NCBI GenBank assembly: GCA_021788015.1
Contig: JAJYLD010000005.1
Location: 349 to 64,348, forward strand
Source of the DNA: a bacterium
GTDB lineage: Bacteria > Patescibacteriota > Patescibacteriia > Patescibacteriales > JAKAJF01
Length of the DNA: 64,000 nucleotides
Direction: 5' to 3'
Part shown: positions 31,325 to 52,483 of the stretch, one piece after another
How positions within the stretch are numbered: the stretch's first letter is position 1
Layout: each line of letters begins with the position of its first letter
The notes under the pieces: generated by a model
What the model was told of the DNA's origin: nothing
What the model saw: the letters and a program-made list of their open reading frames with translations, nothing else
Database searches by the model: none
Program-made: the position numbers and the translations under genes

Positions 31325-33805
31325 ATGAAAAAAAATCTGAAAATACTTTTTTTGTTTGTTTCTCTTTTTATTTTAAATCACAGCGCGCGCGCAAGTTCGA
31401 CTTCGGTGGTGATCAATGAAATCGCCTGGATGGGAACGGAAGCGAGCGCGAGTGACGAATGGATGGAACTTTATAATAATAGTGCGGAGGAAGTTGATTT
31501 GACCGGATGGACACTGGCCAGTTCCGATGGGAATATAAAAATTACTTTGGCCGGCAAGGTGAGCGCGAACGGATATTTTTTACTTGAGCGGACGGACGAT
31601 AACGCGGTAAGCGATATTGCGGCCGACCAAATCTATACCGGCAGCCTTTCCAATTCGGGAACAAAACTGGAATTGGATGACGCTTCCGGAAACGTCATCG
31701 ATTTCGTCGATTGCGCAAGCGGCTGGTTCGCCGGCGATAACGAAACAAAAGCGAGCATGGAAAGAAAAGATTCGGCGCAAGCGGGGGATAAAGACAATTG
31801 GATTACGAATGACGGAATTACGATAAACGGAAAAGACGCGAAAGGAAATAATTTAAAAGCGACGCCAAAAAATAAAAACAGTGCGGGGGCTTTAAATGAA
31901 AATCAAGACGCATCGTCAACTGCAACCGGCACTTCGGAAAATATGGCCACAACCACGACTGCGGACACCAGCGGTTCCGCTTCTTCCGATGTGAGCACCG
32001 GTTCCGACAGTTATGATTACAGCAATGACATAAAAATTTGGGAACTTTTTCCCAACCCGAAAGGCAATGATCGCGATGGCGAATTTATCGAATTGTTTAA
32101 CAAGGGAAAACGCGAAGTCGATTTGACGGGCTGGGCGCTGGAAAACGAAAGAGGACAAAGATACGAGTTGGACAATAAAACCATAAAATCGGAAAAGTAT
32201 TTGGTAATTACGAGAAAGGAAAGTAATATGGCTCTAAATAATCATGAAGATGAAATTAAACTTTTTCAGCCTTTGCACAAAAAAGCATCCCAAGTCGTAA
32301 GTTATAAAGATGCCGACGAAGACGTAAGTTATGCGTTTGACACAAAGAAAAATGTCTGGACCTGGACGAAAAAACCGACGCCGGGCGCGGAGAATATAAT
32401 TAATCATCCGCCCGAAATAAGTATCGACACGCCCGCGGAAATTACGGCGAAAGAAGACGTAATTTTCGATGCCTCGGATACGATTGACCCGGATAACGAT
32501 CCGGTAACTTATGTTTGGGATTTTGGCGATGGTGTGAAAAGCGATTTGGAAACACCGGATCATATATATTTGAAACCGGGGATTTATAAACTGAAATTGA
32601 CCGCATCGGACGGCAAAGATGAGGGCGGAACAGAAATAGACATAAAAGTTGCGTCCGCACCCGAACCGGAATTAATCGACGAGAAGATCGAAACCGGAGA
32701 TATTGTTCTAAACGAAATTTTTCCCAATCCGGCGGGCAGCGACGAAAACAAAGAATGGATCGAAATTCTTAATCGCGGCGATTCCGAAATAAATTTGGGA
32801 AATTGGAAAATTGAAAACGGAGAAAAAAGAAAATATAATTATGTTTTTGAAAATTTAATTTTGAAACCCGGAGAATTTTATGTCTTAAACAGGGAAGCAA
32901 GCGGCCTGACTTTAAAAAATTCCGGCGATAACGTAAATCTGTATAATCCCTTGGGCGGTTTGAACGATCATGTCGGATATGCAGCCGCACCCGAAGCAGA
33001 ATCTTATGCAAGAAATAAAGATGGAACATGGACATGGACAAAAATTTTAACTCCGGGCAAAGAAAACGTTATTCAGGAAGCGGTGATAAAAACAAAAACA
33101 AGAACAGTCTCAACGAAAAAGAAAAAAACAAGCGAAAACCTGCAAATAGTGGAAGGAATCGTCGAAGTAAAACCCGGCATTTTCGGTTCGCAATATTTTT
33201 ATGTTGCCGGCGAAAGCGGAGGGACGCAGGTTTATAATTATAAAAAAGATTTTCCGAATCTGGCCGTCGGCGATTTAGTCTCGGTCGCGGGCGAAGAAAC
33301 GACCTACAATAAAGAACCGAGAATTAAAACGGCGAACGCGGCTGCGATAAAAGTTTTGGCGCATAATCAAAAAATCGAACCGCGGGTTTTAAGTTGCGAC
33401 GAATTGAATGAAGATTATTTGGGAAAAATGGTCACAGTCGCCGGAGAAATAACGGGTAAGAGCGGTTCCGAAGTTTATGTCGATGACGGCAAGAACGAGG
33501 CCTTGGTTTATATTAAAAAAGGCACGGGAATAAAAACGCAAATTTTTGAAAACGGGAAAAACGTTTCCGTAACCGGCATAGTCGCGAACGCGCAAAACGG
33601 CGTTCAGGTTTTGCCGCGTTCGATGGACGATATTAAATTCGCGGCCGGTAACGGCGAAGTTTTGGGAACCGCCATAGGGGGCAACGAATGGGCGCTGGCG
33701 CAGAGAGACAAGCAAAACGAGTTTATGAAATACATGCTTATTTTATCCGGCGGTGTAATTTTGATTTTGGGAGGGTGGATGGTGAAGTTAGGAAGTAGGA
33801 AGTAG
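31325..33805 (+). CDS. Secreted, C-terminally anchored protein with three lamin-tail (LTD) domains, a PKD domain and an OB-fold-like region
   Basis: Signal peptide. VVINEIAWMG / IWELFPNP / LNEIFPNP starts are typical of LTD. PKD-like YVWDFGDG. C-terminal TM LILSGGVILILGGWMV. Confidence 0.7.
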   Translation: MKKNLKILFLFVSLFILNHSARASSTSVVINEIAWMGTEASASDEWMELYNNSAEEVDLTGWTLASSDGNIKITLAGKVSANGYFLLERTDDNAVSDIAADQIYTGSLSNSGTKLELDDASGNVIDFVDCASGWFAGDNETKASMERKDSAQAGDKDNWITNDGITINGKDAKGNNLKATPKNKNSAGALNENQDASSTATGTSENMATTTTADTSGSASSDVSTGSDSYDYSNDIKIWELFPNPKGNDRDGEFIELFNKGKREVDLTGWALENERGQRYELDNKTIKSEKYLVITRKESNMALNNHEDEIKLFQPLHKKASQVVSYKDADEDVSYAFDTKKNVWTWTKKPTPGAENIINHPPEISIDTPAEITAKEDVIFDASDTIDPDNDPVTYVWDFGDGVKSDLETPDHIYLKPGIYKLKLTASDGKDEGGTEIDIKVASAPEPELIDEKIETGDIVLNEIFPNPAGSDENKEWIEILNRGDSEINLGNWKIENGEKRKYNYVFENLILKPGEFYVLNREASGLTLKNSGDNVNLYNPLGGLNDHVGYAAAPEAESYARNKDGTWTWTKILTPGKENVIQEAVIKTKTRTVSTKKKKTSENLQIVEGIVEVKPGIFGSQYFYVAGESGGTQVYNYKKDFPNLAVGDLVSVAGEETTYNKEPRIKTANAAAIKVLAHNQKIEPRVLSCDELNEDYLGKMVTVAGEITGKSGSEVYVDDGKNEALVYIKKGTGIKTQIFENGKNVSVTGIVANAQNGVQVLPRSMDDIKFAAGNGEVLGTAIGGNEWALAQRDKQNEFMKYMLILSGGVILILGGWMVKLGSRK

Positions 33806-33816
33806 GAGTTATTGCC

Positions 33817-33847
33817 GGCTCCATAGTCTCTTTAGAGCTATGGAGCC
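33817..33847 (+). repeat. REP-like hairpin upstream of the transposase
   Basis: GGCTCCATAG tctctttagag CTATGGAGCC. Confidence 0.8.
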
Positions 33848-33874
33848 ATAGTGCAAGATGTTTAATTAAAACAA

Positions 33875-34419
33875 ATGCCGACATTAAGAATAAACAAAGA
33901 AAATGAAAATTTGATTCATTTTTTAACTATAACGGTTATTGAATGGATCGATATATTTACCAAGCCGGAGTATTGCAAAATAATTACAGACAGTCTGAAA
34001 TTTTGCCGAGAAAATAAAGGGTTAATTTTATATGGATATGTAATTATGCCAAATCATATTCATCTGTTAGTTGGAGCAAGGGGAAGTTTTAATTTATCGC
34101 AAATTATCAGCGATTTTAAAAAACACACAACCAGAGAAATTTTGAAAACATTAAAAAAGATAACAGAAGGTATATTCTGAATCTAATTAAAAATAGCTTC
34201 GTCAGAAAAGAAAATTACAATGACCAAATTTGGCAGAGAGAAAATTATCCGGAAGTCATAACTAGTGAAAAGTTCTTCTTTGAAAAATTAAATTATATTC
34301 ATAATAATCCCGTTAAAAAAGAATTTGTAGAAAAACCGGAAGATTGGCTTTATTCATCAGCAAGAAATACAATTTTACACGGTAACAGCGTAATTGAAAT
34401 TGACGATTGGAGTGGATAA
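33875..34419 (+). mobile_element. RayT / IS200-like HUH (Y1) transposase in two frames joined at A_AAA_AAG (34153-34159)
   Basis: Frame 1 (33875-34180) has the HUH motif MPNHIHLLV. The -1 frame from 34159 reads DNRRYIL...IWQRENYPEVI...LNYIHNNPVKKEFV..PEDWLYSS up to TAA 34417-19. Confidence 0.75.
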
Positions 34420-34430
34420 GTCTGCATTTA

Positions 34431-34460
34431 GGCTCCACAGCCCTTCGGGACTATGGAGCC
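34431..34460 (+). repeat. REP-like hairpin downstream of the transposase
   Basis: GGCTCCACAG cccttcggga CTATGGAGCC. Same orientation as 33817-33847. Confidence 0.8.
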
Positions 34461-34464
34461 AGCC

Positions 34465-34611
34465 AACGCTTCGCTAGGAGTTACTTTCTTGTAACCAAGA
34501 AAGTAACCAAAGAAGTTTCGGGGGCTCCAATTCGCTATAACATTGATTAGAATTTTCGTCTCTCACCCTGGCGCTCAATTCCGCCCCCGAACCCTATTAG
34601 TGTTCTGAATA
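34465..34611. repeat. Family B repeat, copy 2
   Basis: The first ~80 nt are identical to 15304-15383. It directly abuts the right REP hairpin. Confidence 0.8.
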
Positions 34612-34749: not shown

Positions 34750-35229
34750 TTAGACGCTGGCCCTGGCTGCTTTTGTGTCGGTTGTGAGCGCCATAATCGT
34801 CCCGGCACGCGCTACCGCATTGACCGTTCCGCCGGTGCCCAGGAGAGCCGTATATGCCGCGCCGTTGGTGCCGGCATTCGGGGTGGTCATCATAATAGCG
34901 AACATGGAGGTCCCACTAGGGGCGTACGCCATTGCCCTTGGTCCCGCCTTCAGAGAGGTAGAGGGAGCTACCGATATCGCCGCGTTTTCGGCCGCGTATA
35001 TGTCGTCGATCATCGGGGCCGTCGCGCCGCTGTTTTCCACTATCATTTCGCTTAAACTGGCCGTCATGCCGGGGCATGCGGGCATGTTGGCTTGATGTAC
35101 CAAGTTGAACACCGTGTTCGCCGGGGCCGCTGCCAAAGTCGGACCGGGTGGCGCGGTCGCGAACACGAAGGAGGCGAGACCGAGCACAAGAAGAACGGAC
35201 AGAATAGGAATTGCTACCCTTTTCATCAT
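34750..35229 (-). CDS. Secreted Ala/Gly/Thr/Met-rich protein in a strongly GC-rich patch (hypothetical)
   Basis: GGAGGG SD 5 nt before ATG 35229. Signal peptide MMKRVAIPILSVLLVLGLASFVFA. Composition is unlike the neighbouring genes. Confidence 0.6.
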   Translation of the reverse strand: MMKRVAIPILSVLLVLGLASFVFATAPPGPTLAAAPANTVFNLVHQANMPACPGMTASLSEMIVENSGATAPMIDDIYAAENAAISVAPSTSLKAGPRAMAYAPSGTSMFAIMMTTPNAGTNGAAYTALLGTGGTVNAVARAGTIMALTTDTKAARASV

Positions 35230-35294
35230 TTTGCCCTCCATTGAGTTATTTGCCGAACGTCTACCCTAACCGGCTGACCTTGCCCTTGGCGCAT
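35226..35294 (-). other. 22-codon upstream ORF coupled by ATGA to the GC-rich secreted-protein gene
   Basis: GAAAGGAGG SD, ATG 35294, MRQGQGQPVRVDVRQITQWRAK. The TGA overlaps the ATG at 35229. Confidence 0.35.
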
Positions 35295-52240: not shown

Positions 52241-52483
52241 TTTTTCATTTCAAAAACTTGCAATTTTGCATGCATATGCTATAATTATCCACATATGATA
52301 AGTAAAACAACGCAAAAAATTCATTTCTGGTTTAGATTTAGCTACTTCTTTAGCTCTGATCGGAGATCGGTTTTTTGTGGTGTTTTATATAGGTAGTAAA
52401 ACTCACAAGGGAAAACGAAACTGGCTCCGATCAAAAATCGGAGCCAGTTTTTAAATGTGATCATTTGAAAAAGGAGGGCAGTA

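Follow-up and report, generated by a model that had tools for sequence, protein, structure and literature searches.

The window, as the stretch of DNA analysed here is called, comprises 64,000 nucleotides (64 kb) of contig JAJYLD010000005.1 from a Patescibacteria-like genome. Near its middle lies a single rayT gene, which encodes an HUH/Y1 transposase and is placed between two inverted copies of its cognate repetitive extragenic palindromic (REP) element, an arrangement referred to as a REPtron. In this genome, the gene is divided over two reading frames that meet at an A_AAA_AAG heptamer. As discussed below, this division is probably due to a real and recent one-base deletion and not to programmed frameshifting. 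The features of the locus are the following, with positions counted from the first letter of the window.

33811 to 33857, plus strand: upstream REP unit with the foot GCC, a hairpin at 33817-33847, a 4-nt spacer, and TGCA at 33852-33855 facing the gene; found with covariance model R1, and the unit also lies upstream of orthologous rayT genes
33875 to 34159, plus strand: zero-frame part of rayT, codons 1-95, with the HUH motif at 34055-34063; based on translation, Pfam Y1_Tnp, and a gapless alignment to 181-residue orthologs
34153 to 34159, plus strand: A_AAA_AAG heptamer, site of the one-base loss relative to TTA GAA AAA GAT of the orthologs; based on the sequence and on ortholog DNA, with the join placed at K95/D96 by protein alignment
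34159 to 34419, plus strand: minus-one part of rayT, codons 96-181 and TAA, with WQ, YIHNNP, Y141 (34294-34296), and SS (residues 161-162); based on translation, a frame scan, and the alignment to 4ER8
34160 to 34180, plus strand: tail of the zero frame, ITEGIF and TGA (34178-34180), which has no counterpart in the orthologs; based on translation and ortholog alignment
34421 to 34466, minus strand: downstream REP unit, inverted, with a hairpin at 34431-34460, TGCA at 34423-34426 facing the gene 3 nt past its stop codon, and a GCT foot on the outside; found with covariance model R1

The zero frame begins with an ATG and extends from 33875 to 34180, encoding 101 amino acids with the end ...TLKKITEGIF and with H61-I62-H63 as HUH motif. 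The codons TTA AAA AAG at 34151-34159 place the heptamer in the X_XXY_YYZ phase of this frame. The minus-one frame is open from 34120, overlaps the zero frame by 61 nt (34120-34180), and continues for 86 codons, counted from G34159, to the TAA at 34417-34419. A frame scan found no ATG, GTG, or TTG in the minus-one frame, which carries the WQ motif (34231-34236) and the catalytic-tyrosine motif YIHNNP (34294-34311). A step of -1 on the heptamer fuses both frames into a protein of 181 residues with the peptide ...EILKTLKKDNRRYILNL... across the junction. In this genome, the metal-binding HUH half and the half with the tyrosine nucleophile are encoded in different reading frames.

RayT and its cognate REP repeat

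The fused protein matches the NCBIfam model of REP-associated tyrosine transposases (NF047646) over positions 7-146 of 146 with 107.7 bits, and the cutoff of 80 is passed only when both frames are fused. Pfam Y1_Tnp (PF01797) is matched by residues 36-100 with 35.3 bits against a cutoff of 23. The NCBIfam model for IS200/IS605 transposases (NF033573) was failed with 27.9 bits against a cutoff of 55, and the tyrosine motif is YIHNNP and not the Y[IV]ENQ (Y---Q) of these enzymes. An AlphaFold model of the fused protein, computed with 17 homologs, had a pLDDT of 80.6 and a pTM of 0.81. Its top fold match in the PDB is 4ER8, TnpA-REP of Escherichia coli bound to a REP hairpin (E = 1e-6; TM 0.65/0.70), and the top 30 fold matches are all TnpA-REP, ISDra2, IS608, or IS200 transposases. 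Entry 4ER8 is also the best sequence match (E = 4e-4), with residues 118-179 of the fused protein, all from the minus-one frame, corresponding to residues 92-150 of 4ER8 including the catalytic-tyrosine motif.

The motifs NHIH, WQ, YIHNNP, and SS as well as the length of 181 residues agree with the signature of TnpA-Y1 subclass 2.6 in Table 1 of Quentin et al. 2018 (PMC6006769), which is composed of NH[LIV]H, WQ, YIH[QN]NP, and a C-terminal SS at a mean length of 179 residues. Subclass 2.6 equals RAYT group 5 (Bertels et al. 2017, PMC5581495), occurs mostly in Bacteroidetes, and has flanking structures that were described as "atypical" (PMC6006769). The gene is a TnpA-REP-type HUH/Y1 transposase gene with the signature of subclass 2.6/RAYT group 5, a class that is assigned here by the published motif table and not by the hidden Markov models of its authors. 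Apart from motif signature and length, this relationship is reflected in Bacteroidota homologs with identities of 37-48%. Whereas the subclass has been described mostly from Bacteroidetes, the present clade is abundant in metagenome-assembled genomes (MAGs) of Patescibacteria. Genes for REP-associated tyrosine transposases typically occur once per genome. One copy is present in the window, and some related MAGs carry two or more rayT genes (L005 with L024, L013 with L022, and two within L027).

The hairpin upstream of rayT consists of a 10-bp outer stem, a bulged T, a 3-bp inner stem (CTC/GAG), and the loop TTTA. The downstream hairpin likewise has a 10-bp outer stem, which is perfect in the upstream copy and contains one C/A mismatch in the downstream copy. 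Both units are matched by covariance model R1 over positions 1-47 of 47, the upstream one with 58.0 bits (E = 9e-19) and the downstream one on the minus strand with 64.1 bits (E = 5e-21), each copy being part of the training set of the model. The downstream unit is near-identical to the family consensus. In general, the repeat unit has about 47 nt. Its foot, G[CT][TC], is followed by an outer stem of 10 bp that contains a T-G mismatch, by a bulged T, and by an inner stem of 3 bp with a short loop; beyond a spacer of 4 nt, TGC(A) lies on the gene-facing side. This TGC(A), 4 nt beyond the side opposite to the foot, is present in 84 of 123 distinct oriented copies. A 5' tetranucleotide of the GTAG type was not found at the foot of the repeat, and the G[CT][TC] found in its place agrees with the "atypical" structures reported for subclass 2.6 (PMC6006769).

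Relatives were examined at 70 related genomic loci (species representatives) and on metagenome contigs. Orthologous genes among the 70 loci are bracketed by the same hairpin, and their upstream and downstream copies are mutually reverse-complementary. In an alignment of 43 copies, 99.3% of the cells pair. The outer six pairs had been chosen for complementarity and therefore prove nothing with respect to covariation; in the inner stem, which was not used for selection, double compensatory changes number 16 and 19, and one cell is unpaired in each case. The flanking hairpins are genuine cognate REPs in inverted orientation and not chance palindromes, and the locus is a REPtron with one rayT between them. 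The same inverted layout is found in 10 of 16 rayT-sized REP pairs of relatives. A preliminary description of the window, made by a model without database searches, had already named a RayT-type HUH transposase, with the two frames as given above (the first stopping 7 codons past TTA AAA AAG, the second holding the catalytic Tyr region), and had proposed that bracketing hairpins at 33817-33847 and 34431-34460 form a REPtron layout. These points are borne out by translation, by the NF047646 match and the 4ER8-like fold, and by the inverted units that are kept around the orthologs.

Scanning the metagenome contigs for outer stems revealed at least 120 loci with 152 hairpins. Of these hairpins, 22 adjoin a rayT gene, 69 are clear orphans, some of them unrelated terminator-like palindromes, and 61 are too near to a contig end to be judged. 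Within the 64 kb of the window, neither pattern searches nor an unfiltered covariance-model scan gave further REP copies, the next match having E = 3.1. Dispersal of the repeat is thus shown for the relatives; for this genome, the census covers the 64 kb of the window, where only the two flanking copies are found. Among REP pairs of relatives that are at most 120 nt apart, 20 of 24 are convergent with the TGC sides inward and a spacing of often 22-24 nt. In their arrangement, these pairs resemble REPIN doublets (Bertels and Rainey 2011, PMC3116915), and rayT is placed equivalently between a convergent pair; the repeat belongs to a different sequence family. REPIN-like doublets occur at L078, L088, L101, L110, L112, L119, L122, L136, L138, L147, and other loci. 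Many loci of metagenome Ga0180732 have REPs without a nearby rayT, suggesting proliferation of the repeat within a genome. On the reverse strand of L114 (about 440-1000), a rayT gene is cut off after ...KHTTREMFEI at a TGCA and is followed by unrelated sequence and a cluster of whole and partial REPs. This break may result from a deletion or rearrangement at a REP-associated site.

The closest characterized system is the TnpA-REP/REPtron of E. coli (4ER8; PMC3479197; PMC8266576), with which the locus has in common the HUH/Y1 fold and a single gene between inverted imperfect palindromes that, in related genomes, also occur apart from the gene. Nevertheless, the sequence identity to E. coli TnpA-REP is just 18%, and in contrast to the E. 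coli REP with its GTAG foot, the present repeat has a GCT foot on one side, N4-TGCA on the other side, a bulged T, and a T-G mismatch. Furthermore, the host of the E. coli system belongs to the Proteobacteria and the host considered here is Patescibacteria-like, with a gene that is frameshifted and no dispersed REP within 64 kb. By analogy with the complex of E. coli TnpA-REP and REP, an intact RayT would be expected to bind single-stranded DNA at the imperfect hairpin and, by means of Tyr141, to cleave and rejoin it next to the hairpin, with a metal ion held by the HUH histidines; the conserved GCT foot and N4-TGCA are candidate guide or cleavage sites.

Patescibacteria-like genomes harbor a well-defined REP/RayT system with a unit of about 47 nt, with REPIN-like doublets, and with copies at sites apart from rayT. 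A RAYT subclass described so far mostly from Bacteroidetes is thereby extended to Patescibacteria-like genomes. A literature search found no paper that ties REP elements or RAYTs to these phyla, incidental mentions apart.

Nature of the frame break

The best 120 of 1,674 homologs are all encoded in a single frame, have mostly 181 residues, and are at most 74% identical. The fused protein aligns to more than 100 single-frame orthologs without any gap across K95/D96. At this site, the commonest ortholog DNA is TTAGAAAAAGAT (TTA GAA AAA GAT AAC AGA) and the window has TTAAAAAAGAT (TTA AAA AAG ATA ACA GA), which is the ortholog sequence less one base. As the one-base deletion itself generates the heptamer in phase, the phase of the heptamer is not independent evidence.

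The split was found in this genome alone. In an exact look-up, the 101-residue open reading frame (ORF) forms a cluster of one that is known from this genome alone, and a search with it returned nothing above 76% identity and no relative sharing the split. No exact match of the fused protein sequence was found among 15 billion proteins. Short homologs, which were considered as fellow split genes, were rejected as contig-end fragments or as genes broken at other sites. Every column of the minus-one part that is invariant among orthologs is retained in the alignment, and the ratio of C-terminal to N-terminal identity to the orthologs is 0.96, with a range of 0.88-1.11 for intact genes. Relaxed constraint on the C-terminal half was dismissed, as this ratio lies within the range of the intact genes.

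Elements that support recoding in other systems were sought around the heptamer. Four sequence windows around and after the heptamer were folded in search of a downstream stimulatory structure, which gave z = -0.94, -0.57, +0.20, and -0.25 versus shuffled sequence; the only structure nearby, 4 nt downstream, is a hairpin with 5 bp and -4.4 kcal/mol. Upstream of the heptamer, no sequence resembling a Shine-Dalgarno motif was found. The other 49 long ORFs of the window contain 13 in-phase A_AAA_AAG heptamers and 187 A-runs of 6-8 in coding sequence, and their lysine codons comprise 1,175 AAA versus 324 AAG. The 13 in-phase heptamers in ordinary genes indicate that the motif is widely tolerated in this genome. 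The ORF pair 23870-24220/24154-24501, the only overlapping pair on the same strand, was considered as a second frameshift, which would have pointed to an error-prone assembly, and was rejected, because it represents two separate genes for a Rhodanese and a DUF3850/ASCH protein. No tRNA-Lys gene is present in the window; its sole tRNA is a tRNA-Pro, which was also the only hit of an Rfam scan.

The preliminary description had proposed that the two frames are joined by programmed frameshifting, with an indel or a decaying gene as alternative. The proposal is not upheld by the comparison with orthologs, which are single-frame with one base more at the site and none of which keeps the heptamer and the two-frame layout, nor by the folding, in which no downstream structure exceeds shuffled sequence. 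The alternative is the better explanation, as the window equals TTA GAA AAA GAT minus one base.

Damage is frequent in related rayT genes. Among 26 close genomic loci, six carry damage, which differs from locus to locus, and further broken copies were found outside this set:

L009: TAG in place of the invariant W120 of the WQ motif, gene otherwise intact
L023: TAA in place of the conserved Q118, two residues before W120, gene otherwise intact
L027: -1 shift at about codon 112, where an A9 run lacks one A
L053: two frameshifts
L051: truncated at both ends
L055: truncated
L058 (outside the 26, about 41% identity): one-base loss at a non-slippery site
L114 (metagenome, outside the 26): truncated
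L193 (metagenome, outside the 26): AGA AAA AAG GCA, one A short at about codon 112
L194 (metagenome, outside the 26): one-base loss at a non-slippery site and loss of a conserved Tyr

Thus, about a quarter of the copies are damaged at varied sites, which indicates that these genes normally end up with a single inactivating lesion. Runs of A are expected hot spots of indels. Locus L027 (1292-1821 and 3081-3320) reads TCA AAA AAA AAG ATT at the site of its lesion, and both L027 and L193 (106-640) have an in-phase A_AAA_AAG. At a distance of 1.8 kb, the contig of L027 also contains the beginning of another rayT copy with an upstream REP of its own. These streamlined genomes both retain such elements and often lose them.

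Interpretation of the split gene

The split is probably the result of a real, recent, and non-programmed one-base deletion in the rayT gene of a REPtron. The deletion would have occurred at codons 94-95, either by loss of the G of TTA GAA AAA GAT or by a change of this G to A followed by loss of one A of the resulting A7, and would have separated the HUH half from the Tyr half. The heptamer would then be a by-product of the deletion in a lysine-rich, A-rich context and not a selected recoding signal, and the gene would be a pseudogene of recent origin that may be leaky. The 181-residue enzyme might at most be made in traces, through occasional -1 slippage on the heptamer that is not programmed. 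The retention of all invariant columns together with the ratio of 0.96 makes the lesion look young, which fits a recent mutation but equally a read error or a gene expressed by slippage. The lesion is probably real rather than a read error, and any residual full-length expression would probably be adventitious. As a frameshift, the textbook heptamer would matter little, being the footprint of a one-base deletion in a lysine-rich coding sequence. This calls for some caution in general, as the loss of one A from "A AAA AAA G" automatically gives an in-phase A_AAA_AAG.

Two known types of -1 slippage on such runs offer a comparison. In the adventitious rescue at A-runs, described for C_AAA_AAA of pDEST17 (PMC1851650) and as 'corrective' or 'savior indel' frameshifting (PMC5009743), a one-base deletion likewise lies beside an A6-type slippery run; the measurements on these cases come from E. 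coli or from a virus, and the present site is described from its sequence. With the -1 frameshifting of the dnaX, IS1, and IS3 type (PMC5009743), the locus has in common the heptamer, its phase, and a possible fusion product, but it differs in that a Shine-Dalgarno sequence is absent upstream, downstream stem-loop folding does not exceed chance, and the split is not conserved.

Several observations weigh against a simple deletion. The minus-one frame is intact and not translatable alone, as in a functional frameshift gene. In E. coli, where a single tRNA-Lys reads both lysine codons, A_AAA_AAG is the most shift-prone heptamer (PMC5009743), and unaided C_AAA_AAA in pDEST17 rescued 25-60% of the product from constructs with a one-base deletion (PMC1851650). 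Judging from these rescue figures, appreciable amounts of full-length RayT may still be made. In addition, restoring the frame of L027 and L193 takes the same kind of -1 shift, at in-phase A...AAG runs elsewhere in the gene, and such alleles could be tolerated or selected. Finally, both assemblies that carry the lesion, the NCBI MAG contig DAHWTJ010000004.1 (GCA_027328865.1) and the Logan assembly of SRR13170411, probably stem from the same reads, which leaves room for a systematic read error.

These points lead to explanations other than a real deletion. If the sequence were a sequencing or consensus artefact, the real gene would be intact, with A7 or GAAAAA at the site, and one base would have been lost during read generation or polishing. 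This would fit a single-base lesion in or beside a homopolymer in a fused gene without any other sign of decay, the restriction of the lesion to two assemblies that are identical over 3,620 nt and probably derive from one read set (SRR13170411), and the one-base losses in A-runs of other metagenome-derived relatives. However, the result is the same with two different assembly pipelines, six A make a short run for a homopolymer error of Illumina reads, and none of the 187 other A-runs of the window interrupts its ORF, with the single suspicious overlap of ORFs explained by two separate genes, so that an artefact is considered unlikely. A reversible homopolymer switch, in which replication slippage in the A-run would keep RayT off in most cells and on in a few, similar to phase variation, is quite improbable. 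One added A would turn the A6 run into an in-frame A7, A-runs of frame-breaking length occur in relatives at a second site (A9 in L027, A6 in L193), and a mostly-off state would be plausible for a potentially genotoxic nuclease; yet runs of A6 or A7 slip rarely in comparison to known phase-variable tracts, most orthologs have GAAAAA and no long run at this site, and plain mutational bias at homopolymers predicts the same pattern equally well.

Programmed -1 frameshifting on A_AAA_AAG would yield a 101-residue HUH-only product and the 181-residue enzyme at a set frequency, and if true would be unprecedented among Y1/HUH transposases. The correct phase of the heptamer, the 61-nt overlap of the frames (34120-34180), the intact downstream frame that lacks a start codon, and the high shift-proneness of this heptamer where one tRNA-Lys reads both lysine codons (PMC5009743) would be expected of such a gene. 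The layout, however, is present in none of the best 120 of 1,674 homologous proteins and in none of 25 close DNA loci, and deleting one base from the ancestral sequence gives precisely this heptamer. Moreover, it is accompanied neither by a stimulatory structure nor by a Shine-Dalgarno sequence, ordinary genes of the window contain it in phase 13 times, and IS200 has 0 occurrences in the frameshifting review PMC5009743. Taken together, programmed frameshifting is highly improbable. A related view, that broken rayT alleles are preferentially retained if their break lies on a run of the A_AAA_AAG type, fits three independent cases (codon 95 in the window and about codon 112 in L027 and L193) and is nonetheless very doubtful. 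Under such preferential persistence, unaided -1 slippage, or slippage of RNA polymerase on A9, would supply a trickle of full-length nuclease. If true, the expression of a domesticated HUH endonuclease would be throttled by a mechanism that has evolved recurrently, and recoding would be seen for the first time in the Y1 transposase family.

Surroundings of the REPtron

The whole REP-rayT-REP unit is bracketed by a 9-nt direct repeat, TAGGAGTTA, at 33803-33811 and 34475-34483. A match of this length occurred in 0 of 200 shuffles. The stop codon of the upstream gene forms the beginning of the left copy; the right copy enters a palindrome. A significant flanking direct repeat is found in 2 of 13 loci, namely in the window and in L003 (15 nt, AT-rich), and with only these two loci a target-site duplication as a general feature is not used as evidence. 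The 9-nt repeat may reflect insertion of the unit as a block, or chance. Block insertion is not expected of single-strand transposition of the IS200 type.

The palindrome, GTTACTTTCTTG-TAAC-CAAGAAAGTAAC, is located at 34480-34507, 20 nt past the downstream REP, and has a perfect 12-bp stem without a T-tail. It may be the original terminator of the upstream gene that was displaced by the insertion. The Logan contig of the region ends within this palindrome at about 34494.

A further hairpin at 52423-52445 had been regarded in the preliminary description as a variant of the REP hairpins. The hairpin exists but is not a member of this repeat family; covariance model R1 finds no match there, and the layout is that of an intrinsic terminator, so that it was rejected as a REP variant. 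It extends over 52418-52450, with a stem of 15 pairs that is flanked by an A-tract and, opposite to it, by a T-rich tail. This hairpin is terminator-like and unrelated to the REP family.

Beyond the palindrome, a neighboring ORF on the minus strand (34750-35241) encodes 163 amino acids with a signal-peptide-like N-terminus and a high content of Ala, Thr, Pro, and Gly; it has no Pfam match. Long ORFs in several frames and on both strands overlap this region, which suggests a locally G+C-rich island in a window with 42% G+C.

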